Part shown: piece after piece, positions 1,980-22,366 of the stretch
Position numbering within the stretch: the first letter of the stretch is position 1
Layout: each line of letters begins with the position of its first letter
NCBI GenBank assembly: GCA_028293375.1
Contig: JAQGOY010000228.1
Location: forward strand, 1-51,586
Length of the DNA: 51,586 bases
Source: Verrucomicrobiales bacterium
GTDB lineage: Bacteria > Verrucomicrobiota > Verrucomicrobiia > Limisphaerales > JAQGOY01
Reading direction: 5' to 3'
Program-made: the position numbers and the translations under genes
Notes under the pieces: model-generated
What the model saw: only the letters and a program-made list of their open reading frames with translations
Told to the model about the DNA's origin: nothing
The model's database searches: none

Positions 1980-3233
1980 TTACCGGAAAAGTGCCTGCGG
2001 GGGAGGGGTGATGGGGTTTGCGTTCCTGGATTTGAATTTTCTGTCGTAGAGCTCAGCAAGCCGTTTTCCGATGGTTCTCCACGAGAGTCTTTGTGAAGCG
2101 GTTTCTATGGCGGCTATGGAGAGTCGTTTTCGTAGCGATTCGTCTTTTAGGGCTTCGACCGTTTCGGTGATGAAGGCTTCAGGAGTGTCGGCGAGGAGGA
2201 TATCCTGTTTGTGAATCAGGTCCAAGCCTTGTGCGCCGATGGTGGTGGAAATGACAGGCGTTCCCAGGGCCATCGATTCAACTATTTTTAACCGGGTTCC
2301 ACCACCGATGCGGAGCGGGACGATTTGTAGCCAGGCCTGCCCGTAGTAAGGTCGAACATCGGGGACGCCTCCGGTAACGTGGACGCCCGGTTTGTCACCG
2401 TAAGCTTTGACTTCGGGTATTGGACTTTTACCGACGATGAGGACCTGCAGATTCGGTATCTGTTTCCGGATGCCTTCGTGGATGGCTTCGAAATACCAGC
2501 GAAGAGCGTCGACGTTGGGGTTGTAATCCATCGCGCCGCAGAAAATAAGGCTCGGGTTTTCGGCACGGGCTGTCGGGATTGGAGACTCCCGGAAGTAATC
2601 CAGATCCACACCGTTCACCACCACTTCGATTGGAACTGTTTTGCTGATGTACTTTTGAATGAAGACTTTGTCATCTGGCCCGCAGACGACCTCCATCGCG
2701 GCGCGGGCCGCGACCTTTTTTTCAAACGCAAGAAGCTTGGCATACCCTTCGTAACGCAAAAATCTGGTCTTGAGAGAGAAATTCATGCGCGAATGTTCCG
2801 CCAACTGAAATTGGAGATCGACCCGGCTGCGATCAACGATCATGGGGATGGATGCACGTTTCTTGTTGGTAAAATATTGAGCAAGGACAATATCGCAGAC
2901 ATGAACGGCGTCGTATTTCCCTGCAGTCAGGAGCCGGTCGAGGACAGGTTCCACCTGAGGAAGTGTCCAGTGAGCGACGTTTGGTGGCAAAGGATTCAGG
3001 AGTCGATCCGGAAACATTTTTTGCCAGTCGGGATGTTTGAAGGAGATGGTTTCGACTCTGTTACAAAATTCAGCGAAGACGTGTTTGTGCTCTTCACCTT
3101 CCCCGTTTTCAGTGAGGGCCAGGAGGTCAACTTCATGGACGCCGGCCAATTCCTTCAGAAGATTGAAAGTGCGATGGTAAGTGCCGCGGTCCAGCGGGTA
3201 GGGAAGGTAAGGATAAAAAACGAGAAGTTTCAT
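1980..3233 (-). CDS. Glycosyltransferase family 4
   Basis: MKLLVFYPYLPYP start, NGVD, PLRIGGGTRLKIVESMALGTPVIST (GT4 C-terminal motif); start moved to ATG 3233 to avoid overlap with upstream gene. Confidence 0.9.
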   Translation of the reverse strand: MKLLVFYPYLPYPLDRGTYHRTFNLLKELAGVHEVDLLALTENGEGEEHKHVFAEFCNRVETISFKHPDWQKMFPDRLLNPLPPNVAHWTLPQVEPVLDRLLTAGKYDAVHVCDIVLAQYFTNKKRASIPMIVDRSRVDLQFQLAEHSRMNFSLKTRFLRYEGYAKLLAFEKKVAARAAMEVVCGPDDKVFIQKYISKTVPIEVVVNGVDLDYFRESPIPTARAENPSLIFCGAMDYNPNVDALRWYFEAIHEGIRKQIPNLQVLIVGKSPIPEVKAYGDKPGVHVTGGVPDVRPYYGQAWLQIVPLRIGGGTRLKIVESMALGTPVISTTIGAQGLDLIHKQDILLADTPEAFITETVEALKDESLRKRLSIAAIETASQRLSWRTIGKRLAELYDRKFKSRNANPITPPPQALFR

Positions 3234-3237
3234 ATCG

Positions 3238-4377
3238 TTAATTATAGTGGCTCCAGAGTTGGCGATAGGCATGAACCAGCTCGGCATGGCTGGTGGCGAT
3301 GGTGTTTAATTCCGATTGGATAAAGCGAAGCAATGCCGGGTCATTGATCGATTCAGGTTTCCACAGCAACAACGGCAGGGTGTTTAGGAGCCGTTCCCGG
3401 GGATAGCGTGAGGATTTGTCACTTAACAATGATTTAGGACCAAATTTCCGAAGATTGATCAAACGATTTTTGGTGTCGGCCGTGTCGGGACATTTGTTGA
3501 TGGGAGACAATGCGTATTGTTCGACGTCGGCAAAATGTTGTTCCAGACGAAGATTTTCCAGCCAAAGCCAGACTTGCTGAGACACAGTTTTGAGCTCGGT
3601 TTGTGTTTGTTGAAAATCGCACGCTGCTCCCTCACGCCGGGTTGGATGAAGTTTAAAGTCCACTCCATCGAAGTGAAACGCCTTCACTGATTTCATCCAG
3701 GGAAGTGTGTCCTCCATGGCTTGAAGATATTGGGCCCGAGTGACGCTGCTCCAGTGGTAACGCTGATTGACAGTCAGGACGACATCCCCGAACGCGAGCT
3801 TGGCCTTGCATTGATTGCGACCGACGAAATCCGCATCCTCAGGACTGAAATCTTTTTTCGCCAGGGCCACCTCGGAAAACAAGAGGCCGGAGCAGCGATT
3901 CATCAGGAGACGAATGGCTTCAGCGAGTTTGATGTTCGCGGCAACACGGTGAACATTGGTGCTTTTGAGGATGGTAGGGCTCCCCAACAAAACCTTGTGG
4001 CCCATGACCAGGTCATAAAAGAACATGGTGGTGGGGCCGGTGATAATTTTTTCCAGCGGCAGGATCTTGAACTCCACCTCGATACCGGCTTTTTCCGTGC
4101 AACGATGAGCGATGTCCTGAAGCTGTCTGCCATAACGTTTCTCGTTGAGAAAAGCAGGACCAGCGATGCAGACATAAAATTCCATGTCGTTATAAGGAAG
4201 ATCGCTCGAAGGGGATTTAAGAACACCCCCTTCGCCCCGCCCATAACCTCCACCCAGAATGATGGCTTGCAGGCGAGATCCCGGCACGACAGCGGTGATG
4301 CCTTCGACCACCGCCTCAGAGACCGAGCTGAGGTGAGATTCCAGTTCGTCAGTACCGTCGAGGGTGAATCGATCCAT
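3238..4377 (-). CDS. Pol-beta superfamily nucleotidyltransferase-domain protein, function unknown
   Basis: ILGGGYGRGEGG...PYNDMEF matches hG(G/S)...DhD/Eh; helical C-terminal region; ATG 4377 coupled (TAATG) to the upstream GT stop. Confidence 0.7.
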   Translation of the reverse strand: MDRFTLDGTDELESHLSSVSEAVVEGITAVVPGSRLQAIILGGGYGRGEGGVLKSPSSDLPYNDMEFYVCIAGPAFLNEKRYGRQLQDIAHRCTEKAGIEVEFKILPLEKIITGPTTMFFYDLVMGHKVLLGSPTILKSTNVHRVAANIKLAEAIRLLMNRCSGLLFSEVALAKKDFSPEDADFVGRNQCKAKLAFGDVVLTVNQRYHWSSVTRAQYLQAMEDTLPWMKSVKAFHFDGVDFKLHPTRREGAACDFQQTQTELKTVSQQVWLWLENLRLEQHFADVEQYALSPINKCPDTADTKNRLINLRKFGPKSLLSDKSSRYPRERLLNTLPLLLWKPESINDPALLRFIQSELNTIATSHAELVHAYRQLWSHYN

Positions 4378-5645
4378 TACCGGTTGTACGGTTGTAGTGG
4401 CACTGGCGCCCATGATTTGAAACTTTCCTTGAGGAAATGATCGGCCTGGTCGAGATAAGCTTTTTCGTTGTAACGGGCATGCACCTCGGTTCGTCCGGTG
4501 TTGGCGATTTGGAATCGAAGTTCAGGATTTTTGTCCAACCGCAGAATTTGACGAGCCAGTTGTTCGGAGCTGCCGGCATTGTAAGTCAAAGCATTCTGAC
4601 CTTCGCGAAATAACTCTTTGCTACCGCCGGTCATCGTCCCAATTACAGGCAACCCGCTAGCCATGGCCTCCAGGGGAGTGATGGCGAATGGCTCCTCCCA
4701 CTCCGAAGTGAAAAGAAGAGCGTCGTGTTCTCGATACAGTGCTGGCATGGCGTCGGGTGAACTGACCGAGGTGAACTTGATGGGCAATTTTCGAGAAGCG
4801 GCGTAGTCGCGCACTTCCTTCTCGTAATCGGCCTCGCCTTTGCCGCAGACGGTTAGTTCACCGGCGAACTTGTCGCGCACCAATTCCATGGCCTTGATGG
4901 CTGTCATGGTGCCTTTATCCTGGGTGATGCGGCCCACAACCAAAAGTCGTTGAAGTGGTTTATCCACCGGTTTCACGGGAGCGTTGAAGCGTTCGATATT
5001 TACCGGGCAATAAGTGATGATCCCTTGAGAGACAGGAAAACCCGCTTCCGCGGTAAAGGTCCGAAGGAACTCACTGCAAAACTGCACATTTCTAAAAACA
5101 AGGTGCTTCACCGGATTGGTTGGTGTGACTTTTTGGCAACGACCCCGAAAACCGCTGACTGTTCTCAGGTTGCGAAGAATCCGTTGCTTGAAACTTGGAT
5201 TGTTGCAATTCCACCAGCGAAGCCATACATCCGCTTTTTCGCATCGAGCGATCCAATGATCGGAGACGTAAAAAGCGGTGGGAATACCCAGTTCCTGGAG
5301 TGTGAGTAGCATCGACTTGGAAAGCCCGCCCATGTTCCAGATATAAACCAGGTCCGGCGACACCTTTTCCAGGACCGAACGCAGGGTGCGATTATTGTAT
5401 TTCTCCAGGCTTTGAAGTTGGTGAATTCCCAGCCATGGGTTTCCATACATCCCGTGAATTTTCAACAAACGGTAGACCGTTTTCTCATTTTCGGGGATGG
5501 GCGACTTGTCCAGCCCGTAATCCGAAGTCAGGACATGCATTTCGTGGCCACGGCCCCGCAGGCCTTCCACCGTATTATGGCAGTTCAGCTCATAGCCACC
5601 GATGAAGAAGGGGGGATAAAGATTACTGAGCGTAAGAATTCTCAT
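4377..5645 (-). CDS. Glycosyltransferase family 4
   Basis: MRILTLSNLYPP..GGYE; SEWEEPFAITPLEAMASGLPVI (E-x7-E). Confidence 0.92.
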   Translation of the reverse strand: MRILTLSNLYPPFFIGGYELNCHNTVEGLRGRGHEMHVLTSDYGLDKSPIPENEKTVYRLLKIHGMYGNPWLGIHQLQSLEKYNNRTLRSVLEKVSPDLVYIWNMGGLSKSMLLTLQELGIPTAFYVSDHWIARCEKADVWLRWWNCNNPSFKQRILRNLRTVSGFRGRCQKVTPTNPVKHLVFRNVQFCSEFLRTFTAEAGFPVSQGIITYCPVNIERFNAPVKPVDKPLQRLLVVGRITQDKGTMTAIKAMELVRDKFAGELTVCGKGEADYEKEVRDYAASRKLPIKFTSVSSPDAMPALYREHDALLFTSEWEEPFAITPLEAMASGLPVIGTMTGGSKELFREGQNALTYNAGSSEQLARQILRLDKNPELRFQIANTGRTEVHARYNEKAYLDQADHFLKESFKSWAPVPLQPYNR

Positions 5646-6516
5646 GATTTAACCCTCGATAATGTTTCCAACCTTCTCGGAATCCCTCGAGTTTTCCCTT
5701 TCGCTGATGCCAGCGTATGCGCGCGGCGTGCGGCATCTCGGCCAGTCGTTTCTCCCGGAGACAGTATTGCAAGTCGTGACGAAGATCGCTGATTACGCCG
5801 AGCGCCACGGTCCGGCCAAAGTTGAAATAGTTGGGGTTTTTCTTCCAGGAAGCAGCAAGGGCTCGGGCGTCGCCAAAGCTTCGTTTGTAGGATTGCTGGG
5901 GCGTGTAATTGTGGGAATGCATGACGACCGATTCCGGCACGTAGACCACGTCATAACCTTGCTGGCGGGCCCAGCGGGTGTATTCATCATCCTCGGCGTA
6001 CTGAAGCTTTTCCAGAAACCCGCGCTTGCTCCAGATATCCTTCCGAAGACCACTGCTGACCATGCTGAAGAAATGATCCCACTTGGTCGAGATGCGGTTT
6101 GGGCCGAAGCATCGATCATAGTCGCAGGCAAATACCGCCTGGCAGTCCGGCCTTGGAATTTGTTGTCCGAAAACGGCAGCGGTGTTCGGGTTAAATAGTT
6201 TTTCCGCCAGGGGACGCAACCAGTTCTTGCCCTGCGGCGTCGCGTCGGCATTCACGAAAATGCCATATTCCGAAGAGGCGACTTCCATGCCCCAATTCAT
6301 CACGCGGCTGGGATTGTATTCCGGCGGAGTTATCTGTTTGAAATGCCGGGGTTTAAAATTCTTGATGAGGTCCACAGAACCATCGGTGGAACCGGAGTCG
6401 ATGACGATCAATTCCCAATTGCTATACTCCTGGTTTTGCAAAGCAGGAAGCGTATCGCGCAATGCCCAGGCTTCATTATAGGAACGCAATATTATGCTGA
6501 GTAATGGATCGCTCAT
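5623..6516 (-). CDS. Glycosyltransferase family 2 (rhamnosyltransferase-like)
   Basis: SIILRSYNE, VIDSGSTDGS, FVNAD, YAEDDE, VMHSHNY. Confidence 0.88.
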   Translation of the reverse strand: MSDPLLSIILRSYNEAWALRDTLPALQNQEYSNWELIVIDSGSTDGSVDLIKNFKPRHFKQITPPEYNPSRVMNWGMEVASSEYGIFVNADATPQGKNWLRPLAEKLFNPNTAAVFGQQIPRPDCQAVFACDYDRCFGPNRISTKWDHFFSMVSSGLRKDIWSKRGFLEKLQYAEDDEYTRWARQQGYDVVYVPESVVMHSHNYTPQQSYKRSFGDARALAASWKKNPNYFNFGRTVALGVISDLRHDLQYCLREKRLAEMPHAARIRWHQRKGKLEGFREGWKHYRGLNHENSYAQ

Positions 6517-8123
6517 GCTGTTTTCCCGGCTTTAAAAATTCTGGGAAATTTACGCGCAACTTGAAATCGGTCGGATGTCGTCATGGCATAATTCCAGAGG
6601 CCGATGAAACCAATGAACATGCCGAGAACGCATTGGCCAATCATAATGATCGAACTTTTTCGGTAATCGAGCCATGGGGAATAAAAAGTAAGAAGTAAGT
6701 AAGCCACCAAAGGTAAACAGCCTCGAAGTGTGGGGAACAGGACCTTCCGCAGCATCCCCATCAAGGAAAGCTCTGCCTCTTTTGCCGCCCATGGAAGAAT
6801 GTATCCAAAGCCAAAGACCATGGTGGCGATGAGTGAGCCTAGGGCCACACCAATGACATTGTGAAATTTGACGATCAAAGAAACGCTGAGCACCAGGTTA
6901 AGGAGCGCTTCACCAAGACCCATCCACATCAACTTCCGTTCATGACCGCACATCATAAAAATGCGCTTGGTGACACTCTGGGTAAGTAGAGTTACAAATT
7001 GCCAGGTGAGAAGAATTTCCCCAACCCAGAACGTTTCAAAATAAAAAGTCCTGTCGCGTGATAGGAAGGCAATCATTCCCTGCATGTAAAAAAGACCAAT
7101 CAGAAAAGCAGGAGTGGCGATCATGACGCTGAAACGGGTGCCATCCAGGAGCAGCCTGCGCAATACTTCCTTTTCGCCTTTGGCATGAAGATGAGCGGCA
7201 GCCGGACTAAATGTGTCGGGGAGTTGATTGGTAAAGGTTCCAAATACTTCGCCGACCTTCGCGCCAGTCTCGTAAAGTGCGACCGAAGATACTGCCTGGA
7301 CAATACCGATCACGAGGCGATCAGTCTTGCCGAGAATCATGTTGCTCAAAGTGCTGATGTAAGTGAACACCGAGAAACGAAGCGTTTCCACGATCATCTT
7401 TGGCGAAAAATATTTAGGCAACAACTTGACGTGAGGAAGTTTTTTCAAGGCACAGGCCCCGCAAAGGGCACTGGGAACAATCGCGCTCGCGAGTGAAATG
7501 ATGACGATGGTTCTTAGACCCAGGTGTTGACGAATCGCCACCGTAATAAAAACAAAATTCAAAACGCCAGTTACCGAAAAAATCATGTTCGCCAGGAAGA
7601 TACGCTGCTGACCGATCAGAATCTCCGGAAAAATACCGAGAGGAAAACCGATACCGATGCCGCAGAAGAAAAGCACCATGATTTGCCGAAAGATTTCGCG
7701 GTTTGGCGGGCTGATGTTGAACATGCCAATCAAGGCGTGTGAAAAGCCAAAGGCGATTCCAACGATGATCAGCGCGATGACAACATAGAGATAAAAAATG
7801 GTGCTTAATACCTGGCTAAGTTCCGTCCAGTTTTGGTGAACGGAGAGTTCCGCAACTTTCTTGACCGCAGTAAAACCAAATCCGAAATCGAGAAGAATTC
7901 CGAATCCGAACACACTCCAGAGAAGAGTCCAAAAACCGAATTCCTCAGTGTGAAGGCCTTGCTTCAGGACCCCGAACATAACGACGCCGAGAGCCATGCG
8001 AAGCCCCATGGCGAGGTAGTTGGAGATGGAATTCCTCCACATGTGCCTGGCCATCTCCTCATGGGGAGACTCCATAGGCGACTTATGTACGTCCGGAGCT
8101 GCTGGAGCGGCTGTAACTGGCAT
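6513..8123 (-). CDS. Wzx/MOP-family oligosaccharide flippase
   Basis: Many TM segments; EEFGFW, LLDFGFG, TDRLVIG...VALYETG; located among GTs. Confidence 0.85.
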   Translation of the reverse strand: MPVTAAPAAPDVHKSPMESPHEEMARHMWRNSISNYLAMGLRMALGVVMFGVLKQGLHTEEFGFWTLLWSVFGFGILLDFGFGFTAVKKVAELSVHQNWTELSQVLSTIFYLYVVIALIIVGIAFGFSHALIGMFNISPPNREIFRQIMVLFFCGIGIGFPLGIFPEILIGQQRIFLANMIFSVTGVLNFVFITVAIRQHLGLRTIVIISLASAIVPSALCGACALKKLPHVKLLPKYFSPKMIVETLRFSVFTYISTLSNMILGKTDRLVIGIVQAVSSVALYETGAKVGEVFGTFTNQLPDTFSPAAAHLHAKGEKEVLRRLLLDGTRFSVMIATPAFLIGLFYMQGMIAFLSRDRTFYFETFWVGEILLTWQFVTLLTQSVTKRIFMMCGHERKLMWMGLGEALLNLVLSVSLIVKFHNVIGVALGSLIATMVFGFGYILPWAAKEAELSLMGMLRKVLFPTLRGCLPLVAYLLLTFYSPWLDYRKSSIIMIGQCVLGMFIGFIGLWNYAMTTSDRFQVARKFPRIFKAGKTA

Positions 8124-8125
8124 TT

Positions 8126-11100
8126 TTATTTTCCGGCCTCTTCGAGGCACCGTTCAAGTTGTTTTGCCAGCAACTTTACATTTGGCTCCATCAGGATGGT
8201 ATCGTGATCTCCCGGAACGATATGTCGTTCAATTTGCTTAACCAGCGATTTCCACCCGTAATTGGGATCAGGTATAACGGCAGGATCCTGGATGGCAGCA
8301 TTGAAGAGAATAATCTTCCCTGCATACTTGTGGGACTCGTAACCGTCCAGAGCATTAAGGTTGGTGTGATAAATGTGCTCCAGGTTATCGAGAAATTTAT
8401 TTCTTTCAGCCACTTTGACCGGATCTTCGATTTCTTCGAGACTGGCGCGTTTGAATCGCATTTCGTCGGCGAGCCGAACACCTCGATAATAATTCACCTT
8501 GGCCACGACGTATCGTTTCCATTGCAGGGGAGACATACTGAACAGACATTGGAAGCGGCGCAGGGCGTAACGAATATTGGAATAGCCTGGCGAGGGGGCG
8601 GGAGTTTCAATCAGCGCCAGCAGTGCTGTTTTTTCACCCATCCTGGCCAGTTGCTGCGCCATTTCCACCGCGAGGATTCCGCCGTAACACCAGCCGCCCA
8701 GAAAATAGGGGCCATGCGGCTGGACGGTTTGGATTTGTTGAATATAATAACGCGCCATTTCCGGCACGTTGGTGTGAGCCAGGGAACTGTCCTTAAACCC
8801 AAGAGATTGCAAACCGTAACAGGGTTGTTCGGTGCCCAGATGATATACCAGGTTGCCATATCCGAGCACGTCACCCGGAGTGGTATGAATGAGAAATAAT
8901 GGTTTCTTAGTACCAAGGGTTTGCAATGGAACCAGCGACGACCATTCCTCGGGTCTGCTGACCTCTTCAATTTTTCGCGAAATAGCCTCGATGGTGGACG
9001 CCTGATAAAGAATTCCCATAGGCAATTTCTTGCCGCTAACCCTTTCTATTTCGACGATCAGCTTCATGGCCTGAAGCGAATCACCGCCGAGTTCAAAAAA
9101 GCTAATGTCGGTTCCAATCGGGCGCCGGTTCAGAAAACGCTCGAACACCAGTTGAATCTGCATTTCCAGTGGTGTTTGAGGAAGCTTGATACTCTGGTCG
9201 TGCTCTTCCACTACCGGTTTCGGCTCGGGAAGCGCTTTGCGGTCCACCTTACCGTTTGGAGTTAACGGAAGTTTCTCCAGTTTGACAAAGGCCGCTGGCA
9301 CGCAATAGACAGGGAGCTTTGTTTTCAGGTAATCGCGCAGCTCAGGGATGGTGTAAGTTTTTCCATTTTGGGTTACGATGTAAGCTACCAATTGTTTTTC
9401 CCCGCCGGTGACCACGCGAGCCACCACCACCGATTCGCGAACCGCAGGATGTTTGCTGAGGACGGCCTCGATCTCGCCGAGTTCCACACGGTAACCTCGA
9501 ATCTTTACCTGGTGATCGATACGCCCCAGGAACTCCAGATTGCCATTGGGTAAAAAGCGGGCCAGGTCGCCGGCCTTATACATTTTCGCACCGGGTTTCG
9601 AACTGAATGGATCGGGTATAAAGCGCTCATCGGTCAAATCCTGGCGATTGAGATACCCGCGAGCCAGGCAATCTCCCCCAATGAATAATTCCCCGGGCAT
9701 TCCGATCGGAACGAAATCTTTTTGCTCATTGAGAATGTAAATTTTCGCATTGGCTATCGGTTTCCCGATGGAGGGAAGAGGAGGCCAATAGAGTGCGCTG
9801 CCTTTCAAATCGTGGGCGGTCACCACATGGGTTTCAGAAGGCCCATATTGATTGTGCAAGGTGCATTCTTTCAGTTTGGTAAAAAATTGCACAATTTGGG
9901 GTGTGACCTGGAGCTGTTCCCCCGCAGTAATAACTTCGGCGAGCTGATTCGGGTAAATTGAATTCCGTTCAGCCGCTTCTGCCAGGTGCTTTAATGCAAC
10001 AAAGGGCAGAAAGATGCGCTGGATCGATTGTTCGGCAATGAACTGGATCAAGAGATTTGAATCGCGGCGATTGTTCTCGGGAATCATGACCAGCGTGCCG
10101 CCTGAGCAGGTGGTGGAAAATATTTCCTGGAACGAAACATCGAAATTCAGTGACGAAAACTGAAGCGTGCGCGCCGGGAGGGTGTAGCCCCAATTATCGA
10201 ATTGCCAGAAGAGCAGATTGACGAGCGGCCCCTGGCGCATGGCCACCCCTTTGGGCTTGCCCGTGGATCCGGAAGTATAAATGAGATAAGCGAGATGATC
10301 TTCAGACGTCCTGCACACCGGATTGGTATTGGGAGCGTCTGCAAATTGGGCCGCGTCGCGATCCAGGCAGAGGAGTCGGGTTTCAGTATCAGGAATTTCT
10401 TCGATTAGACTTTCCTGGGTCAGAAGCAGCGGAGCACATGTGTCTTCGAGCATGAAGGTCAGTCGATCCTTCGGATAACTGGGGTCGAAGGGAACGTAAG
10501 CGCCGCCCGCCTTGATGATGGCGAGAACAGCGATGGCGAGTTCGACCGAACGTTCCAGGCAGACTCCGACAACAACGTCTTCCCTTACACCGCTTTTTTG
10601 CAGGAAATGAGCGAGCTGATTGGCTCTTTCGTTGAGTTCATAGTAAGTCAGAGATTTTAATGGACTGTTTCCCAGGGGGGCGCAGACAGCAATGGTGGAA
10701 GGGGTCTTTTCGACTTGAGCCTCGAACAACGTTTTTAGATTTTTTACCGGTGGGTAATTGGTGTTCGTCTTGTTGAAAAGCCCAAGGATCTGAGTCCTTT
10801 GCGCTGGGGGGACCATATCCAGATCCTTGAGATTCTTCTCGGGGTGCTCCACCATTTGGCGCAACACCCAGGCGTATTGCTGAAGGAGCGCCTCCACGGC
10901 TGCTTTATCGAGGGCTGACCCTGAAAACTCAAGGTTCAAACCTCCGCTGGCTCCATTGACTGTAACCTTGATGCCCTGGGGATTTCCGGCAACGAATCCT
11001 CGATCGCCATTTGGACCGAATTCAACCAGACTTTCAATAATCGGCTGGTTATTGGGGATTTCGCACCACTGACGGAGATCCTTCGCTGAGGCGGCATCCT

Positions 11101-11551
11101 GAGACTGATAGGAAGAGAGCTCCACGTCCAATTCCATGAGCCAGGCCGATACCGATAGGCTGCTTTTTACATCGAGTATCAGGGGCCAAAATAAATCGCT
11201 CGCTGGAATCCCTTCAAACCGGGTGCCGAAAACCACCCGTTCTTCAGTACTGTAAGCGCCCAGCAAAAGAGCCCATGCCCCTAGGTAAACGGTTTCCGGG
11301 CAAACATTGGCTTTGGAAGTGAACTGAAGAAGCAACGACTGAAACTGGGCGTCAGTGCTGGAATAGCGAGTGACGTAGTGGTGATCTTCCCTGGGAGCCT
11401 TCACCGGCCGGACCAGATTGAAAGAAGTTGGCGCGCTAAAATAAGAAAGTTTGGTTTTCCAGAACTCGCGATCGCTGCCAGGATTTTTAGCGGCAGCAAT
11501 TCTGGCAGTTTTCCCAACTTTCAAACGATCGGTTTGAACTGAGGTGGCCAT
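8126..11551 (-). CDS. Stand-alone NRPS-like protein: partial condensation domain, adenylation, PCP, thioesterase
   Basis: A motifs [72 protein letters not shown] and GDH; N-terminus has only C-lobe motifs (EFWKTKL, AWALLL..YS...VVFG). Confidence 0.93.
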   Translation of the reverse strand: [1141 protein letters not shown]

Positions 11552-11577
11552 ATGACGTCTCTTTAGTTTTCTTGGCC

Positions 11578-12348: not shown

Positions 12349-12372
12349 AAGTCTTGTTGCGTAAGCTCGGGT

Positions 12373-15200: not shown

Positions 15201-15553
15201 ATCGAGGCTGGCATAAGGCGCCTGACTTCTGAGACGAGTTGAGTCGGACTAAATGGCTTGGTGAGGACAATTTCGTTCTCATTTGACCGCGGCAGCAGCA
15301 TGCCGGGAGGAATCTCTGACATGCGGATCACGGGTATGTGTTTTTGGGTCATGCGAAGAAGTGCAATCACCGGATCGAACAACTCGCGGCTGGAATCATC
15401 CAAAAGCACCATGCTGAACTGATTCAGCTGCACCGCCCTTAAGGCGTCTTCGCCGTTCCGGGCCTGCACCATTTCATACCCGGCTCGCTCCAAATGATGT
15501 TGCAGCAGCCTTAGCATGAACAATTTTGTGTCTAGTACCAGAATTTTGTTCAT
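15197..15553 (-). CDS. Single-domain response regulator receiver (atypical)
   Basis: KILVLD, ARNGEDAL, VLLD, LTKPFS. Confidence 0.8.
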   Translation of the reverse strand: MNKILVLDTKLFMLRLLQHHLERAGYEMVQARNGEDALRAVQLNQFSMVLLDDSSRELFDPVIALLRMTQKHIPVIRMSEIPPGMLLPRSNENEIVLTKPFSPTQLVSEVRRLMPASI

Positions 15554-17346
15554 AACTTCTTGTTTTCGTCCATCAATACAATGAATGTTTGATCATCGTA
15601 AAGTGTTCCACCATCTTGAAATTTGTTAAGCTCGAGAACGAGGGATTCCTTTAACTCCTCCGCAGAATTAAAGGACAAGGCGTTTTTTTCCATCCAGTTA
15701 AAGAGTCGGTTTTGTCCAAAGAAATCGTTGGTCGCGTTTTGGGCATCGGTGACACCGTCGGTGTAAAGCAGGACGCGGGAACCCGCAGGGAAGGGCAGGG
15801 TCGCCTCTTCAAAAGTTGTATTGGGAAGTATCCCCAGCGGCAAACCGTCCGGTGCCACCGTTGTCAGGCTGGTCTGGCCGGGGCTCATGATCAGAACCGG
15901 GCAATGGCCTGCCGTGGCTGCGCTCAAGGTCCGCTCAGTCATATTGATTTTCAATACTTCTGCCGTGATGAACATGCCCACGTCCGAAAGCTCATCGAAA
16001 AGCATGGTGTTGATTCGAGTCATGATCGCGCGAGGACTGTTGAGCTCGGTAGTGGCCCGCAACGCGCTTCGAAAGATCGCTGCAAACATCGCTGCCGGAA
16101 TTCCTTTGCCCATCACATCCGCGATGATGGCCAGGACGCAGTTTCCATCCTGGTGGATAACCGTGTAGAAATCGCCCCCCACCTGCCTGGCGCTTTCGCA
16201 ATGGGCGGCCAAACCAAGCCCTGGCAATACGGGCAGTTGTTTCGGCAACAGTGCCCGCTGAATATTCTTTGCGATTTCCAGTTCGTGCGAAGTCAGCCGG
16301 TGACTCATCTGTTCTTCACGGAACCTTGCGTTCACGATTTGAATGGCGAGAAAATCGGCAAAGGTATGGATGACGTTGGCGTGCGCGGCAGTGAAGGACG
16401 AACGGCCCATTTCCTTTCCAACAGTCAAGGTTCCCACCAGCTTACCTCCAAAATAAAAGGGATGCACCAGGCCGATCGAACTTGGTTTGATTTCCTGCCA
16501 GGCCCCCTGATTGGTTTTGGAAAGTTTGGGATCAAACCAAACATCCTGTCGCGACAGGGCAGCGCTGACTTCGGCATGTGATCCTTGCTCCGGAACATTT
16601 TCCAGGGAAAGGGAATCCAGTTTCAGCGAAGGTTCAGAAGCTGTAAAAACAATGAGTCGTTCTTCTTCCTTGGGCACAACTCGCAAAACGAACCAGTCCG
16701 AAGAAGTAATCTGGAGCAGATCAGAGCACAGGCAGCGGGCAAATTCGGCAAGGTCATCGGTTTTTCCAAGGTCTGTGCCGCAACGAAAAATGGCCGAGAG
16801 ACTTTCGTAACACGAACTTAACTCCTCCGTCATGTCATGAATGATTTGCTCATTCTCGGCGAGACGATCCTTGTAGGCCTCGAGCGTCGGTTCGGAGGAA
16901 TAATTGTCCGGAAGCACCGCTCCGCTTCCGTACTTTTTGAGAATGAGTGTGTTGCCTGCGGCCGCTTTTTCGTAGCTCACATCGTCCATGATCGAACGCA
17001 TCAGGAAAATTCCGCGACCGCTTTCGCTTTCGTGTTCCGGCAGTCGAGATTGCAGCGGAAGGGTGAAACCGGGTGTGTGATCCTCAATTCTCAGTTCCAG
17101 CGTATTGTCGTCCGTAATGGCGTGCATGACGATGGGTTTGGAACGCCCTGCCTCTTCGCAATAGAGAACGGCGTTGTTGCAACCCTCTACCATGGCCAGT
17201 TCGCAGGCCATGATGTCCTCTTCCGTCGTGCCGTTTTGTTTGAGAAAACGGCAAAGCTGCGAGACTGCATCTCGAACCATTTCCAGTTGGCAGGGCAGGG
17301 TTACCGAGAAACGTCTTGAAACCGTGGTTGCGGCTGACAAAAGCAT
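15550..17346 (-). CDS. RsbW-like HATPase kinase + GAF-like + SpoIIE/PP2C phosphatase fusion
   Basis: ELAMVEGCNNAV, IEDHTPGF, ESGRGIFLM; IQRALLP, VGGDFY, IADVMGKG, LLYTDGVTD, DDQT. Confidence 0.9.
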   Translation of the reverse strand: MLLSAATTVSRRFSVTLPCQLEMVRDAVSQLCRFLKQNGTTEEDIMACELAMVEGCNNAVLYCEEAGRSKPIVMHAITDDNTLELRIEDHTPGFTLPLQSRLPEHESESGRGIFLMRSIMDDVSYEKAAAGNTLILKKYGSGAVLPDNYSSEPTLEAYKDRLAENEQIIHDMTEELSSCYESLSAIFRCGTDLGKTDDLAEFARCLCSDLLQITSSDWFVLRVVPKEEERLIVFTASEPSLKLDSLSLENVPEQGSHAEVSAALSRQDVWFDPKLSKTNQGAWQEIKPSSIGLVHPFYFGGKLVGTLTVGKEMGRSSFTAAHANVIHTFADFLAIQIVNARFREEQMSHRLTSHELEIAKNIQRALLPKQLPVLPGLGLAAHCESARQVGGDFYTVIHQDGNCVLAIIADVMGKGIPAAMFAAIFRSALRATTELNSPRAIMTRINTMLFDELSDVGMFITAEVLKINMTERTLSAATAGHCPVLIMSPGQTSLTTVAPDGLPLGILPNTTFEEATLPFPAGSRVLLYTDGVTDAQNATNDFFGQNRLFNWMEKNALSFNSAEELKESLVLELNKFQDGGTLYDDQTFIVLMDENKKL

Positions 17347-17648
17347 TAGCGTTTAACAATTTCGAATATCCGATGCATGCGAGTGAGTTCCAGGATCTGT
17401 TGGACAGGGGGGGTTGGATTGACAAGCCGCACCATGCCGTTGCGGCTGCAGGTGGTTTTGTGAAGGCTGATCAGGGCGCCAAGGCCACAACTGTCGACGA
17501 ACATGGTTTGAGAAAGGTCTATCTCTATGATTTTGTGAGCCTCGGATAGGGAGGCCCTTACCTGATCCCGAAAGGAATTGGAGTTTGCTGCCGCTAATTC
17601 CTTGATGCCTGTGATGCTAAGGGTTTCACCGTTGGTTTGAGCTTTCAT
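17346..17648 (-). CDS. STAS-domain anti-sigma factor antagonist (RsbV/SpoIIAA-like)
   Basis: IDLSQTMFVDSCGLGALI, ILELTRMHRIF; phospho-Ser conserved. Confidence 0.92.
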   Translation of the reverse strand: MKAQTNGETLSITGIKELAAANSNSFRDQVRASLSEAHKIIEIDLSQTMFVDSCGLGALISLHKTTCSRNGMVRLVNPTPPVQQILELTRMHRIFEIVKR

Positions 17649-17873: not shown

Positions 17874-17896
17874 AAAACAGGCCAAAACCCAATGTC

Positions 17897-19192
17897 TCAG
17901 TTCGGCGCAGTCCTGCCGAAATGGAGAATTTTTTTGACCAGGGTTGCTTCCCGGCCACTGGTTTCCTTTTTCGAAAGAAAGAATCTTTTGATGCAGGCGA
18001 CAATGATTTTCAAGTCCAGTTTCCAATCCGCCTGCACGGAATAAAAACTCGAATGTGCTTTGGCCTCTTCACAAAATGGCTCAATGCATCCCTGAGCTTC
18101 GGATAATGACATGAACCCCAGCGGAACGGAGAGCCAAAGCTTCTCAAAATCGTTCTCCAATTTTCTTGCCTCGTTGGGCGTCAAAGGCCGGTTTCCAACC
18201 CAAACGAACTCCCCCTTGACAATATTCCACATTTGCGGCCATCGGCGAAGTCCGCCTTGAAAGAACGGAAACTCAAAATAAATAATCGGCTTGGCCTGTG
18301 GATAGCCTTGTGGAGGTGTCGCCCGGCGGGGACGAACTATCCGTTGTCCCATCAGTAGCATCCACCCCGCAGCAAGGCCCACGATCGGGCTCGTAACTAC
18401 CATCAACCCGGCCGCCACCGCTCGTCCGCATAATCGTTGCAGATACTGCGAGTTTTCCAACGGCCGCAGGGAGCAGAGGAGAAAAGCGTCCACGATCTTC
18501 GTATGGGAACCGGTATTCCAGTTCATTAACTGAGCTCCCGAGGCAATCGATTGATTGAGAGTAATGGCCGAACCTACGAATGTCTGGGAACCGATTAGGC
18601 TTTCTCGGATTTCTGCGCCTTCCTCGACAACCACTTCGTTTTCCAGGATGACGCACGGGCCCACCACCGCCTTGTTACCGATTTTTGCGCGATCACCAAT
18701 CCAACAGGGGGCAGTTAGCACTGCGGTGCTGGAGATGTTGGCCTGTCGACCAACCCAGATGCCCGGGCGTATTTCTTTTACTCCGACCCGGTTGGACATG
18801 TCTGGATGGTCCAGGTTTTGTGAAACTACACGAAAGAGATCGCCAAGGCTGGAAAAAAGTTTCTGGTCAGGTTTCCATGGAAAGGAGTCTGCCACATGGC
18901 ACTCGATCCCGGCACCCGCCTTGTCAGCGGCCTCAGCAAGCGAAAGCTCGCGCGCCGTTGGCTGGACTAACAGTTTAACACCCCACCTTTCGCCTTCCCC
19001 GAGCGTTTCACGGATTTTCTCCGGCCTGTCACTGGCGAATAGGGTGATTTCCTTGCAGCCGCGCAAAACCAAATGCTCTATCCAGTATTCCAATAATGGT
19101 TTACCGAGCAGGGTAAATAGGCCCAGGGGGGCATTTTCGGCGAGGGATGCTACGGATTCTCTCTGGTGTGGGCAGATGAGACATGCATTCAT
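17897..19192 (-). CDS. Degenerate NDP-sugar pyrophosphorylase-like domain + hexapeptide (LbH) + degenerate bacterial sugar-transferase domain
   Basis: LLGKPLLEYWIEHL...LGEGERWGV (NTase fold), hexapeptides PCWIGDRAKIGNKAVVGPCVIL, C-terminal WPQMWNIVKGEFVWVGNRP. Confidence 0.8.
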   Translation of the reverse strand: MNACLICPHQRESVASLAENAPLGLFTLLGKPLLEYWIEHLVLRGCKEITLFASDRPEKIRETLGEGERWGVKLLVQPTARELSLAEAADKAGAGIECHVADSFPWKPDQKLFSSLGDLFRVVSQNLDHPDMSNRVGVKEIRPGIWVGRQANISSTAVLTAPCWIGDRAKIGNKAVVGPCVILENEVVVEEGAEIRESLIGSQTFVGSAITLNQSIASGAQLMNWNTGSHTKIVDAFLLCSLRPLENSQYLQRLCGRAVAAGLMVVTSPIVGLAAGWMLLMGQRIVRPRRATPPQGYPQAKPIIYFEFPFFQGGLRRWPQMWNIVKGEFVWVGNRPLTPNEARKLENDFEKLWLSVPLGFMSLSEAQGCIEPFCEEAKAHSSFYSVQADWKLDLKIIVACIKRFFLSKKETSGREATLVKKILHFGRTAPN

Positions 19193-19196
19193 TTTG

Positions 19197-19922
19197 TTAA
19201 TAAGCTCCTTTACTAAACAGAACCGCAGGCACTGTCTTCAACAGGATGCGCACATCGCCCAAAAACGATTGGCTTTCGATATACTGCACATCCAATAGAA
19301 CCTGTCCTGGAAAATCGATTTCGCTTCTTCCGCCGATCTGCCAAAGACAGGTGATTCCTGGCTTCGCAAGCAATCTGCGTCTGTCTTGCAAAGTATACAA
19401 TGCGACTTCACGAGGTACTGGGGGTCGGGGACCCACTAATGACATATCCCCTTTTAACACGTTGAAGAATTGAGGAAATTCATCAAGCGACAATTTTCTC
19501 AGCCATTTCCCCACTTTAGTGATGCGGGGATCGTCCTTCATTTTAAAGGTGATGCCCTCGGTGTGTTGATTTTTGGCAAGCAATTCTTTCATTTTAGCTT
19601 CGGCATCCACGCACATGGAACGGAACTTAAACATTTTAAATTCTTTCCCATCCTTGCCCACGCGGCGTTGCGCAAAGATCACCGGCCCGCCGTCCTCCAG
19701 TTTCACCAGTAGCGCCAGAAGGATAAAAATCGGCGAAAAAACGAGGATAAACATCAAGCTGGCCAGCACGTCAAAAAACCGTTTCACCGCAAGCGTCGCT
19801 GCCAGCATCCACTGCCAGGAATGGCGCTTCCAGGCGGAATAAGCTCTCAGGCGCATTCGCCCTGTCTTGGTTCGCATTAACTCCAGTCTTTCCACTGTCG
19901 GCGCTGTTGAATGGTTCACCAT
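19197..19922 (-). CDS. Priming sugar transferase (polyprenyl-phosphate glycosylphosphotransferase, small PGT)
   Basis: KRFFD, KFRSM, DDPRITKVG, SLDEFPQFFNVLKGDMSLVGPRP, KPGIT. Confidence 0.95.
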   Translation of the reverse strand: MVNHSTAPTVERLELMRTKTGRMRLRAYSAWKRHSWQWMLAATLAVKRFFDVLASLMFILVFSPIFILLALLVKLEDGGPVIFAQRRVGKDGKEFKMFKFRSMCVDAEAKMKELLAKNQHTEGITFKMKDDPRITKVGKWLRKLSLDEFPQFFNVLKGDMSLVGPRPPVPREVALYTLQDRRRLLAKPGITCLWQIGGRSEIDFPGQVLLDVQYIESQSFLGDVRILLKTVPAVLFSKGAY

Positions 19923-19929
19923 ACATCTA

Positions 19930-20538
19930 TTAATTTGCTAAGGACTTCTTTATTTCCATTGCCAACTCGGTCACGGTAGCCTCGTCCAGCGGATGATCGA
20001 GAACCCGGGTCGCCCATCGTTTTTGGCTCTCCACATAGCGCTCGTGCATCGGACGTACTGTCCCATGAAGCTGTTCCCGAATGGATTCTTCACTTCGCCC
20101 CCTTTCTGCCAGATCCCGATTGATTCTTCGGGAGAATCTCACATCTTCAGGGCAATTGAGGAAATAGCGATGTTTAAAGTGCTTTCTTACCGAAGGTTTG
20201 CGCAATAACCAGAGTCCTTCGAAGATTACGAAGGAAGTTTTGGGCAGGTCCTGAAACGTCTCTCTCCTCGTGTGGGAGCTAAAATCGTAGGAGGGAATTT
20301 CACAAGCATGGCCGTTTCTACAATTTTCCAAAACTTTCACTAAACTTCCCCAGTCAATCGTCCTGGGATGGTCGAAATTAACCATGCTTCTTCGTTTTGG
20401 AGACAAATGAGATTGGTCGCGATAGAAATTATCAAGCGAGCACACACCCGCTTCAACTAGTCTTTTTTGCAGCATTTCTGCCAACCACGTTTTTCCGGAA
20501 CCGCTGCCGCCTGTTATTGCTATTAAATGTGAACTCAT
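19930..20538 (-). CDS. udk: Uridine kinase
   Basis: GGSGSGKT Walker A, LDNFYRD, NFDHP, YDFSSHTR, FEGLW, RDLAERGR, VRPMH. Confidence 0.9.
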   Translation of the reverse strand: MSSHLIAITGGSGSGKTWLAEMLQKRLVEAGVCSLDNFYRDQSHLSPKRRSMVNFDHPRTIDWGSLVKVLENCRNGHACEIPSYDFSSHTRRETFQDLPKTSFVIFEGLWLLRKPSVRKHFKHRYFLNCPEDVRFSRRINRDLAERGRSEESIREQLHGTVRPMHERYVESQKRWATRVLDHPLDEATVTELAMEIKKSLAN

Positions 20539-20576
20539 CGCTCGTACATATGGCAGGTAATTCTCCTGCCAGAATC

Positions 20577-20612
20577 GTTATAACCGATCCTGGTAGATGG
20601 GTTCAATCAGGA
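20577..20612 (-). promoter_or_regulatory. Putative promoter of udk unit: TCCTGA-TTGAAC-N18-TATAAC
   Basis: Same CCYSA-TTG signature as other promoters in the window. Confidence 0.55.
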
Positions 20613-20672
20613 GTCAGGAGCGAAAATTTCCAAGGGTTTTCCCCTGTTGCTTCAGGGATTACATCAGCCGTG

Positions 20673-21887
20673 CTACGCGCTTTGTCCCGTTTTCACTGCT
20701 TTGGAAGAGTTCTCGAGCACAATTTTGGCGAACATCGCCTCCAGGCTGGAGATATAGGTATCGAACTGGTATTTCTCAGTGACTAACTCAAGGCCGTTAA
20801 GCCCCAGCTGTTTGGCGAGTGCTTTGTCTGAAAGAAGTGAATCCAATTTTTCCGCGTAGGTTTTGATATCCATCCACGGCACCAGGTATCCATTGTAACC
20901 ATTGGTAAGCCAGTCTTTGATCCCGCCGGCATCAAACGCTACCACAGGCAAGCCGTATCGCATCACTTCCAACCCAATTGTCGCGAACGGTTCGGGCCAT
21001 ACCGAACTGATGGCTACCACCGAGCATTCCTTGTAGTAATTGACCAAATCCTCCTGCGGAATGAACCCAAGAAATTTTACCTTGTCGGCCAGACCCAGTT
21101 TTAAGGCCAGTTTTTCGCAGTAGGCTTTATGACTTCCTTCTCCCAGAATAATGCATTGAAAGTCATTCTTGAGCAGTTTTAGGCTCCGGATCAGGATATC
21201 CACACCTTTCCCGCGGATAATCTGGCCGGCATAAATGATCAGGTTGCGCTCGCCAAAGTTGCTGCGGATATTTGGATCTCCCATCCTCGGCACAGGTGCA
21301 TGAATCTCGATCCTTCGTGAATCGAATCCGTTGTTGAGCAATTCCTCCTTCATGTATTGGGTCACGACAACCATGCGATCAAACTGCCTGTTCAGCGCTA
21401 TTTCACGCTGTTTGGCCCGCAGGCTGATCAGTTTCAACGGGAACCCGGGCCCATGGTTCCGGGCGATGGATGCGCCGCAGGGAAATAGGCAGCCAAAGCC
21501 GGCGCTCTTCGTGCAAATTTTCCTTGATAAGTAATGATATTTATAACTGCGCATGCAATAGATGTCGTGGTCATGAACCATTCTGACCAGCGGCAACCCT
21601 GAAGAAACCAGGGCTTCAATCACTTTCAGGTCCGCCATTTTGTGCACATAAACCAGGTCTGGCTTAAACTCCTGGATGGCCTGCTCTATCTGGTTGGAAG
21701 TGTCGGAGTTGAGGTATTTACGATAAGTGAAGGTCGCTTCCCATCCTTTTTGGTTTTTTCCGGTATGAGGCCCGTGGGCGATGCCTGTCTCGTGACCTTT
21801 TTTCTTCAACTCGGTCGCGGTAATGAACGCGTTGGCCTCGGCCCCCGCCAATGCTCCGAAGCGTTCATGCACAAAAAGAAATCTCAT
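20673..21887 (-). CDS. Glycosyltransferase family 4
   Basis: MRFLFVH...GAE, VHDH, GKGVD, SVWPEPFATIGLEVMRYGLPVVAFDAGG; start could be 21899 or 21923. Confidence 0.9.
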   Translation of the reverse strand: MRFLFVHERFGALAGAEANAFITATELKKKGHETGIAHGPHTGKNQKGWEATFTYRKYLNSDTSNQIEQAIQEFKPDLVYVHKMADLKVIEALVSSGLPLVRMVHDHDIYCMRSYKYHYLSRKICTKSAGFGCLFPCGASIARNHGPGFPLKLISLRAKQREIALNRQFDRMVVVTQYMKEELLNNGFDSRRIEIHAPVPRMGDPNIRSNFGERNLIIYAGQIIRGKGVDILIRSLKLLKNDFQCIILGEGSHKAYCEKLALKLGLADKVKFLGFIPQEDLVNYYKECSVVAISSVWPEPFATIGLEVMRYGLPVVAFDAGGIKDWLTNGYNGYLVPWMDIKTYAEKLDSLLSDKALAKQLGLNGLELVTEKYQFDTYISSLEAMFAKIVLENSSKAVKTGQSA

Positions 21888-22365: not shown

Positions 22366-22366
22366 C

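Follow-up and report, generated by a model that had tools for sequence, protein, structure and literature searches.

The present study concerns a stretch of 51,586 nucleotides (contig JAQGOY010000228.1 of assembly GCA_028293375.1, positions 1 to 51,586 of the forward strand; hereafter the window) from a Verrucomicrobiales bacterium placed in the Limisphaerales, the source being an uncultured soil metagenome-assembled genome (MAG) which is 75.6% complete. Open reading frame listing together with Pfam and NCBIfam scans revealed a glycan-assembly run of 16 genes, all on the minus strand, between positions 1980 and 21923, and among these genes is one for a single-module nonribosomal peptide synthetase (NRPS). 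The locus is best explained as a polyprenyl-phosphate-linked glycan assembly operon, for an exopolysaccharide or another envelope glycan, of a soil Limisphaerales-like member of the Verrucomicrobiota. Judged from the sequence evidence, the chances seem about even that the region is a glycan operon with a captured NRPS module, in which the adenylation (A), thiolation (T) and thioesterase (TE) domains would aminoacylate the glycan by way of the thioesterase.

The NRPS gene (8126..11581, minus strand) encodes 1151 amino acids from a GTG start, the database record beginning at Met11 with 1141 amino acids, and it overlaps the upstream FkbM gene by 4 nt and the downstream flippase gene by 25 nt. Pfam places Condensation at residues 28-124, AMP-binding at 286-644, AMP-binding_C at 703-778, PP-binding at 812-869 and Thioesterase at 894-1136. 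The preliminary description of the locus had spoken of one module without a complete condensation (C) domain, and this is borne out. What lies at the N-terminus is a vestigial C-terminal half of a C domain (about residues 28-260; 10802..11500, minus strand) which matches only positions 185-280 of the 456-position Condensation profile, and the first 285 residues align solely to residues 196-365 and 414-475 of the McyB C-A structure 8hlk_A. The catalytic HHxxxDG motif of C domains lies at about residue 150; since the alignment starts at residue 196, the whole match falls downstream of the motif. A full C domain of about 450 residues with HHxxxDG is thus not found in the protein, and the missing half is not encoded nearby, because the FkbM gene overlaps the start of the NRPS gene. 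The other three domains are complete and no stop codon interrupts the gene. The A domain (residues 286-778; 9248..10726, minus strand), which has a Pro-like specificity pocket, scores 250 bits against PF00501 AMP-binding (cut-off 29.9) and 428 bits against TIGR01733 (cut-off 317.4), and the stretches YTSGSTGKPKG, NxYGPSE, YKxGD, GRxDxQVKIRGxRxE and NGKxDR are conserved in an alignment of 23 family members. The carrier or T domain (residues 812-869; 8975..9148, minus strand; PF00550 PP-binding, 47.4 bits) carries the serine of GGDSL, with G832, G833 and S835 invariant in all 23 sequences. In the TE domain (residues 894-1136; 8174..8902, minus strand; PF00975, 76 bits) the nucleophile is Cys965 instead of serine, and Cys965, Glu992 and His1126 are likewise invariant (23/23). 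The protein therefore has all three hallmarks of an A-T-TE termination module, namely the A core motifs, the carrier serine and a triad of nucleophile, histidine and acid. A phosphopantetheinyl transferase gene is present on contig C90 of the same MAG (PF01648, 72.1 bits).

For the specificity of the A domain, the 161-residue stretch between motifs A4 and A5 was searched against all solved structures. The best matches were TycB (9bfd_B, residues 640-796) with 105.7 bits and GrsB (8p5o_A) with 103.1 bits, every other solved A domain reaching at most 57.9 bits; both structures show the first, L-Pro-activating module of the respective enzyme, tyrocidine synthetase 2 and gramicidin S synthetase 2. 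This margin supports the prolyl-like label that had been put forward from the sequence at the outset. Unlike the protein in the window, TycB module 1 and GrsB module 1 are parts of multimodular assembly lines with working C domains. With the pocket positions of the Stachelhaus scheme and the proline signature taken from the literature, seven of the nine positions that can be read from the alignment are the same as in TycB module 1, the window protein differing by Ile in place of Leu at 278 and Gln in place of His at 322. At 278 the majority of the family has Leu, Gln322 is invariant in the family, and the tenth position, the Lys of NGKVDR, is present. Prolyl-like is a fair label, yet because Gln322 is fixed in the family a proline analogue or another substrate is possible.

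The NRPS is embedded in a tightly packed series of genes. From the STAS gene (17648) down to the last glycosyltransferase gene (1980) there are twelve genes, and each junction is an overlap of 1-50 nt or a gap of 24 nt, which confirms the minus-strand series with overlaps or gaps under 30 nt reported in the preliminary description. Gaps of 248 nt (between the STAS gene and the gene before it) and 134 nt (between the first two genes of the run) set apart the four upstream genes, and beyond the run 134 nt separate it from a PLD-family gene. The first of the four upstream genes (all coordinates of the run are on the minus strand; labels such as L014 stand for loci in other genomes or contigs) encodes a GT4 glycosyltransferase (20673..21923; Pfam Glycos_transf_1, 132 bits) with orthologues of 59-64% identity at the same cassette end in L014, L018, L023 and L025. 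It is followed by a P-loop kinase of the PRK/uridine-kinase family (19930..20538; Pfam PRK, 105 bits), which is kept in L013, L014, L016, L018, L023 and L025, and by the initiating enzyme, a small polyprenyl-phosphate phosphoglycosyl transferase (PGT; 19197..19922; Bac_transf, 230.9 bits) with hydrophobic segments within residues 43-84 and a TIGR03025 score of 293.4 bits, just below the cut-off of 295.55. The fourth (17897..19192) is a nucleotidyltransferase/left-handed beta-helix protein with a Hexapep match and a partial C-terminal Bac_transf domain (positions 91-177 of 179); its GlmU/RmlA-like NCBIfam matches are all under cut-off and its weak match in the PDB is to sugar-1-phosphate nucleotidylyltransferases. 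This fusion adjoins a complete Bac_transf gene and is itself kept in other loci at 37-42% identity. Two small plus-strand genes (22027-22753), one of them with a DUF883 C-terminal glycine-zipper, diverge from the first GT4 gene and occur in the same place in L014, L018 and L023.

On the upstream side of the NRPS, the twelve-gene series begins with the single-domain STAS protein (17346..17648), followed by a fused kinase/phosphatase (15550..17346), a receiver-domain protein (15197..15553), a CBS-DHH-DHHA2 protein (13566..15200), a cytoplasmic NPP-fold phosphodiesterase/pyrophosphatase (NPP; 12373..13569) and an FkbM-family methyltransferase (11578..12348; Methyltransf_21 in Pfam, TIGR01444 64.2 bits, above the cut-off of 37.7). 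Directly downstream lies a Wzx-like flippase of the MOP family (6513..8150) with multiple hydrophobic segments and a Polysacc_synt_3 score of 44.7 bits (cut-off 23). The series is completed by a GT2 glycosyltransferase (5623..6516; Glycos_transf_2, 77.9 bits; 68-77% identity in the NRPS-bearing loci), a GT4 glycosyltransferase (4377..5645; Glycos_transf_1, 97.4 bits; absent from L018 and L020), a nucleotidyltransferase-like protein (3238..4413) and the last GT4 glycosyltransferase (1980..3287; Glyco_trans_1_4, 86.8 bits; 53-67% identity in the NRPS-bearing loci), which scores 227.1 bits against TIGR03087, below the cut-off of 316.65. Apart from the flippase and the PGT no protein of the cassette has more than one hydrophobic segment; the beta-helix fusion and the kinase/phosphatase have one each. 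The initiating PGT and the flippase are features of a Wzx/Wzy-type pathway. No Pfam domain of a Wzy polymerase, a chain-length regulator or an outer-membrane export protein was found among the open reading frames of the window, the rest of the MAG not having been searched, and these genes may lie elsewhere in the incomplete MAG. An affiliation with exosortase/PEP-CTERM systems was considered and rejected, as TIGR03087 and the exosortase-associated ligase model TIGR03098 (181.4 bits, cut-off 592.35) both stay below their cut-offs and Pfam scans of the window found no exosortase domain. Promoter-like and terminator-like signals occur at chance level (11 against 14.8 expected and 33 against 25.7 expected, respectively), so that the one promoter-like site in the 248-nt gap upstream of the STAS gene is given no weight. 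No RNA sequencing run containing the stretch was found; three DNA runs, all from one soil study, contain it.

Several of the neighbouring proteins have features of their own. The NPP (Pfam Phosphodiest PF01663, 47.1 bits; 60-74% identity in NRPS-bearing loci) is predicted with an AlphaFold pLDDT of 95.2, and its fold matches ENPP6, ENPP5 and the Xanthomonas (Xac) NPP with E values of about 1e-16 and TM scores of 0.62-0.69. It has no hydrophobic segment and is cytoplasmic by hydropathy. Across 27 sequences D190, H194, H236 and H341 are invariant, D12 and D235 nearly so, and G40 and S42 of GYSSTC are invariant as well. The 391-residue soluble protein at 3238..4413 had been labelled a nucleotidyltransferase (NTase) in the preliminary description. 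It has no match in Pfam or NCBIfam and its nearest Atlas clusters consist of unnamed Verrucomicrobiota proteins, but it has the motif GGGYGRGEG...DMEF, and in its AlphaFold model (pLDDT 92.8) the nearest fold is, modestly, the ANT(4') kanamycin nucleotidyltransferase (E 3.9e-4, TM 0.34/0.47); it is classed here as a Pol-beta-type nucleotidyltransferase-like protein. It is speculation, guided by the folds alone, that the NTase/NPP pair might attach a nucleotidyl or phospho group to the glycan and trim it. The STAS protein (62 bits) is of the partner-switching antagonist type with a DSCGLG serine motif, and the kinase/phosphatase fuses a HATPase_c_2 serine kinase (77.7 bits), a GAF domain (GAF_2 27 bits, just below the 28.6-bit cut-off) and a PP2C phosphatase (SpoIIE 149.1 bits); the elements of a partner-switching module are thus all there. 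The kinase/phosphatase and the receiver gene are both absent from L022, L023 and L061; the receiver match is borderline (Response_reg 30.1 bits, cut-off 30.2), with homologues of 40-47% identity in eight other loci. By analogy, the STAS, kinase/phosphatase and receiver set is predicted to be a post-translational switch on glycan output. The CBS-DHH-DHHA2 protein has the architecture of a CBS-type family II pyrophosphatase and may pull pyrophosphate-releasing steps forward.

Conservation of the gene order was followed in other genomes. An alignment-based scan with one genome per species gave 14 loci with an orthologue of the NRPS (L013-L025 and L061), whose open reading frames were compared with the window proteins by BLASTP; the contigs of L017 and L024 are too short to show neighbours. 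A scan of metagenome contigs with generic patterns found two orthologues among 80 loci, of which L113 was counted as a duplicate of L022 and L114 was added. The orthologues are 53-63% identical to the NRPS of the window and occupy the same slot in other Verrucomicrobiota/Limisphaerales genomes. The shared order, with variable members in brackets, is (GT4-PRK-PGT-nucleotidyltransferase/beta-helix)-STAS-(kinase/phosphatase-receiver)-NPP-(FkbM)-NRPS-Wzx-GT2-(GT4)-NTase-GT4, and because it recurs in independent MAGs an assembly artefact is unlikely. In all 12 assessable loci (L013, L014, L016, L018-L023, L025, L061 and L114) the NPP gene precedes the NRPS gene, either immediately or separated from it by FkbM alone, and the flippase lies directly downstream in all 11 (L013-L016, L018-L023 and L061). 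In every assessable locus the NRPS and Wzx genes are wedged between NPP and GT2 with overlapping reading frames. Wherever the flank is long enough the STAS gene, 75-83% identical in most NRPS-bearing loci, stands on the upstream side of NPP, either directly or with the kinase/phosphatase and receiver genes between. The CBS-DHH-DHHA2 protein has no BLASTP homologue in any of the other NRPS-bearing loci.

The preliminary description had proposed, as a check, a search for co-occurrence of the NRPS with the flippase, FkbM, the NPP and the NTase. The outcome was in favour, with the flippase and the NPP in place in every assessable locus, but FkbM is not tied to the NRPS and is found in only five of the 12 NRPS loci showing the NPP/NRPS junction, the window counted, and also in the NRPS-free locus L094. 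Among the NRPS-bearing loci FkbM is present in the window and L013-L016 and absent from L018-L023, L061 and L114. Homologues of the NRPS away from glycan genes had been named there as evidence against the proposal; no orthologue with a readable flank stood outside the NPP/Wzx glycan context in the scanned loci. The coupling of the NRPS to the glycan genes is thus strongly supported by conserved synteny. Two of the loci deserve a remark of their own. L022, labelled Candidatus Saccharimonadales, carries the STAS-NPP-NRPS-Wzx-GT2 block with BLAST values identical to those of the metagenome contig L113, and it is probably a Verrucomicrobiota contig in a wrong bin. In L061, a chromosome-level Verrucomicrobiae MAG, the Wzx gene is split into four open reading frames and the GT2 gene into two (12721-15119), which could be due to sequencing-error frameshifts or to real decay.

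The NRPS belongs to a distinct family. A homologue search was made in a collection of 5.8 billion proteins, and among the 120 best matches listed 37, the window's own record included, are single-module proteins of 876-1152 amino acids. WCYGG of the Cys-TE and the A5/A4 stretches NQYGPSE and FDVSFQE occur in all 37 and the Glu motif in 36 of them. The named ones come from MAGs of Verrucomicrobiota, Limisphaerales or Verrucomicrobiia, apart from one with the label 'Candidatus Saccharimonadales'. In a quick maximum-likelihood tree of 23 family members and five terminal modules of two-module NRPSs the single-module family is monophyletic (SH-aLRT 100). A remnant of the C domain is found in nine of the 23 aligned members, spread over four subclades among members without it; since members with and without the remnant interleave on the tree, it is taken as a dispensable relic. 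Read most simply, the tree points to a canonical C-A-T-TE termination module as the ancestor of the family, with a C domain that shrank to a half before disappearing on several occasions, which is the expected outcome if condensation was no longer used. Forty genomes of the same order, each from a different family, yielded no orthologue, their NRPS homologues being generic and, over long stretches, at most 42% identical. A 1456-residue C-A-T-TE gene in genome G277, beyond the 20-kb stretch of the NRPS-free locus L095, was considered as a full-length precursor and rejected, as it belongs to an ordinary multimodular NRPS cluster (L193, 10402-19969) with its own phosphopantetheinyl transferase; type II secretion genes lie between these NRPS genes and the glycan locus L095.

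The glycan locus itself is not confined to genomes with the NRPS. Full-length homologues of the NPP (28-66% identity) are present in 97 of 401 genomes sampled across the phylum. From these, 20 NPP loci were fetched across the identity range and compared with the window proteins by BLASTP, and homologues were found for GT2 in 15, NTase in seven, PGT in seven, STAS in six, the kinase/phosphatase in four, CBS-DHH in three (adjoining NPP as in the window), Wzx in three and FkbM in one; the NRPS was found in none. An orthologue of its T-TE part occurs in only one of the 401 genomes, namely that of the window itself, the next-best matches being 41-42% identical and lying inside proteins of about 2400 residues. 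The picture of a built-in NRPS given in the preliminary description is therefore not upheld, since related glycan loci lacking the gene, which it had named as evidence against itself, are common and include close relatives (L093, L094 and L095, with NPP 60-66% identical, and also L096). The NRPS is instead read as an accessory, lineage-restricted add-on which is not needed for the core product, although the NRPS-free loci do not show that it is unrelated to the glycan.

In L093, where NPP is 66% identical, the order is NPP-GT2-NTase. In L094 (9934-11830) FkbM stands directly after NPP and is followed by a PQQ-like beta-propeller and a solute-binding protein, again without an NRPS. On a quick NPP tree without bootstrap, a single change of state accounts for the ten NRPS-bearing loci (SH-aLRT 85), and these are nested in a clade with support of 100 together with the NRPS-free L093, L094 and L095, L094 being the sister. 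As L094, the nearest NRPS-free locus on this tree, has FkbM after NPP, the methyltransferase either preceded or outlived the NRPS in the slot, and by its distribution FkbM is independent of the NRPS in both directions. The simplest view of the tree and the synteny is that a single gain brought the NRPS into one sublineage, where it was retained as the proteins drew apart to about 55-60% identity. The glycan core is, by the same comparison, older than the NRPS and widespread in the phylum. More distant members carry a compact unit of GT2, an NTase-like gene and NPP (GT2 30-34%, NTase 24-30% and NPP 39-44% identical) at L098 7319-10540, L099 7475-10678, L100 7656-10587, L101 7755-10886 and L103 9477-12639, and this looks like an unnamed, widespread glycan-modifying module. 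A CBS-DHH-DHHA2 gene of 33-35% identity adjoins NPP in NRPS-free loci of the same class (L107 10572-12269, L108 7851-9503 and L109 10524-12167).

Decoration of envelope polymers by carrier-bound amino acids is known from other systems. DltABCD carries out the D-alanylation of teichoic acids. The wider principle, in which an adenylating enzyme and a carrier act together to decorate an envelope polymer, is known as well from NodE/NodF and from the tetronate genes in the rfb region of Vibrio cholerae O1. AlmEFG is responsible for the glycylation of lipid A in V. cholerae (PMC4278540). As proposed for the window, an adenylating enzyme of Dlt or AlmEFG loads an amino acid onto a phosphopantetheinyl carrier for the decoration of an envelope polymer. 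However, Dlt and AlmEFG use a separate small A enzyme and carrier and transfer the amino acid by DltB/DltD or AlmG, whereas in the window A, T and Cys-TE are fused and the TE is the sole candidate transferase. The A domain scores 250.7 and 267.7 bits against the DltA models, below the cut-offs of 559.85 and 476, and is thus not a member of DltA; Pfam scans of the window found no MBOAT, DltD or lipid A acyltransferase domain.

The closest solved relative of the TE is AB3403 (ABBFA_003403 of Acinetobacter baumannii, PDB 4zxh/4zxi), with 90.1 bits over the whole domain. It is likewise a stand-alone single-module termination protein (C-A-T-TE) and has the GGWC(Y/F)GG Cys motif and the His in PGDH in common with the window protein. 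It differs in having a complete C domain, and in having Asp after beta-6 where the window family has an invariant Glu. It prefers glycine and sits in an operon of the lipid/acyl-CoA type. Among solved NRPS thioesterases a nucleophilic Cys is, according to a published account, confined to SulM, ObiF1 and AB3403, the last being uncharacterised (PMC11298585). A TE acting on an outside acceptor is described for FrsA of FR900359 biosynthesis, where the TE of a monomodular NRPS performs an intermolecular transesterification onto the hydroxyl of a separate molecule, in place of hydrolysis or cyclisation (PMC7794379). The likeness of FrsA to the window protein is one of description, and its acceptor is a cyclic depsipeptide, not a sugar. 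FrsA is also said to have a working C domain that N-acylates the amino acid. For the regulatory genes the Vibrio syp polysaccharide locus offers a parallel, as it too has its own STAS protein and serine kinase/phosphatase; the likeness is one of domains. In the window a GAF domain replaces the central receiver of SypE, and the receiver is a separate protein. To our knowledge the syp locus has no NRPS, NPP or NTase. In Vibrio fischeri the STAS protein is SypA, upon which SypE, of kinase-receiver-PP2C architecture, acts (PMC4517449), and a partner-switching module has also been described in connection with the heterocyst Hep layer polysaccharide of Anabaena (bioRxiv 10.64898/2026.04.08.717354).

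Our data are consistent with the following scheme. One sublineage would have captured a canonical NRPS termination module and kept it between NPP and a Wzx-type flippase, while its C domain decayed to a catalytically dead half and was lost entirely in many descendants. The A domain, to judge from its pocket, would activate L-proline or a close analogue, and the amino acid would be loaded onto the carrier domain, whose motifs are intact. The TE, with its Cys-His-Glu triad, could then take the amino acid onto Cys965 as a thioester. With neither an upstream donor nor a peptide at hand, a carrier-bound amino acid would have only two useful fates, namely self-condensation or transfer to an acceptor outside the enzyme. 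A lipid- or nucleotide-linked sugar is the likeliest acceptor, because the gene has a fixed, frame-overlapping slot among cytoplasmic glycan enzymes directly before the flippase. From this gene context the TE may hand the amino acid on to such a sugar in the cytoplasm, at either a hydroxyl or an amino group, and the neighbouring Wzx may flip the decorated unit. FkbM and the NPP/NTase pair would act on the glycan independently of the NRPS, and the STAS and kinase/phosphatase proteins, in analogy to SypA/SypE, could gate the output after translation. The more specific proposal that the Cys-TE is a glycan aminoacyl transferase, which moves the prolyl group or an analogue from the carrier to a lipid-linked sugar in the cytoplasm before Wzx acts, is made tentatively and in our judgement falls a little short of an even chance; such a route would be unlike Dlt, AlmEFG and the tRNA-dependent and ATP-grasp routes. 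The overall interpretation of the preliminary description is partly supported by the sequence comparisons; the transfer to a sugar, the acceptor and the phospho-substituent that it named are putative.

A number of points weigh against aminoacylation of the glycan by this module. In most of the phylum the glycan locus does without an NRPS, as the 20 sampled NPP loci and the single T-TE orthologue among 401 genomes indicate, and the node for a single gain has only moderate support. The invariant Gln322 departs from the proline reference, so the substrate may be other than proline. Glu takes the place of the acid residue that is Asp in AB3403, Pfam scans gave no evident sugar aminotransferase or other acceptor-forming enzyme in the locus, and we know of no TE that acylates a sugar. 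The co-location of NRPS and glycan genes could also come from co-regulation only. Finally, the nearest NRPS-free loci (L093-L096) have no Wzx homologue in the fetched stretches, and it is possible that the NRPS came in jointly with the MOP-family transporter, the two forming a self-contained pair for synthesis and export. Such a pair, which we regard as unlikely, would consist of an iterative A-T-TE that releases a cyclodipeptide or another proline derivative, the Cys-TE holding one prolyl group while the carrier brings the second, and a transporter that exports the product; it would sit in the glycan operon through shared switching-on, for example in biofilm. Thioesterases that oligomerise carrier-bound units are established, EntF and GrsB being examples, and AB3403, the nearest solved relative, shares the Cys nucleophile and belongs to a non-glycan operon. 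The assignment of the transporter as Wzx is weak in NF041503 (42.5 bits against a 300-bit cut-off), but it falls in Polysacc_synt_3 above the Pfam cut-off. The joint absence of NRPS and Wzx from L093-L096 would fit a joint arrival; however, the distant loci L105, L106 and L110 carry Wzx beside NPP, STAS and GT2 without an NRPS, so the flippase belongs to the locus family in its own right. The frame-overlapping position of the pair between NPP and GT2 in every assessable locus also speaks against a separate unit. If the NRPS did make a free small molecule, it would be an ordinary orphan NRPS with an unusual address.

It is also conceivable, though we think it rather improbable, that the A-T-TE aminoacylates a target other than the glycan, in the manner of Dlt or AlmEFG: a membrane lipid, the polyprenyl carrier, a cell-wall component or a protein of the locus. 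Carrier-dependent aminoacylation of envelope lipids and polymers is established, as by Dlt, and the A domain reaches its 250-268 bits against the DltA models, albeit below the cut-offs. For AlmEFG it is described in PMC4278540. The PLD-family gene just downstream (715-1845) would suit a lipid target, but it is not conserved beside the cassette in other genomes, the window has no acyltransferase domain of the MBOAT/DltB, DltD or AlmG type among its open reading frames, and the invariant neighbours are glycan enzymes. That the NRPS is a decaying, functionless remnant of a larger assembly line, with the truncated C domain as its sign, is very improbable. The C domain is indeed reduced to a half without its catalytic motif, and even this remnant is lost in many family members. 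However, A, T and TE are full length with catalytic residues invariant in 23 of 23 sequences, the reading frame is free of stop codons, and the gene is kept in the same slot across lineages at 53-63% identity.

The remainder of the window holds genes of other kinds. A hybrid histidine kinase of 2611 residues with 16 HAMP domains, GAF, HisKA, HATPase_c and three receivers is encoded at 24040-31875 on the plus strand, followed by two LuxR-type response regulators (31958-32614 and 32791-33468). About 2 kb separate the kinase gene from the far end of the cassette, and the gene is not a conserved neighbour in other genomes. At 40372-50274, also on the plus strand, there is a series of MoxR AAA ATPase, DUF58, BatA/VWA, solute-binding-like, NHL-repeat and VWA/GATase1-like genes, which is of the Bat/MoxR type and unrelated to the glycan locus.

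In the literature searched, which did not extend to subscription journals or supplementary files, an NRPS within a glycan locus of Verrucomicrobiota is nowhere described, and this agrees with the earlier remark that no characterised pathway with this gene set is known. The gene set is new, but the principle is not, carrier-dependent decoration of envelope glycans being already familiar from Dlt and AlmEFG. The novelty lies in the form: a fused termination module, with its rare Cys-TE and vestigial C domain, has been inserted among the genes of a Wzx-type glycan operon in an uncultured soil lineage. It should be noted here that the lead is drawn only from gene context and that the bacteria concerned are uncultured and form a narrow group. 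On the other hand the related loci with and without the NRPS, the C remnant and FkbM form a natural experiment, so that the question is directly testable by heterologous expression. Apart from the NRPS, the study brings to light a previously unnamed glycan locus with GT2, a Pol-beta-type NTase, a cytoplasmic NPP and partner-switching proteins in about a quarter of the sampled genomes of the phylum. If aminoacylation of the glycan is true, it would be a new type of reaction for NRPS thioesterases, very few of which use an external acceptor. It would also add a new and genetically compact way of making aminoacylated surface polysaccharides, little being known of the enzymes by which bacterial glycans acquire amino acids, and a single termination module captured into a phylum-wide glycan operon would have given rise to a new class of glycan-decorating enzyme.

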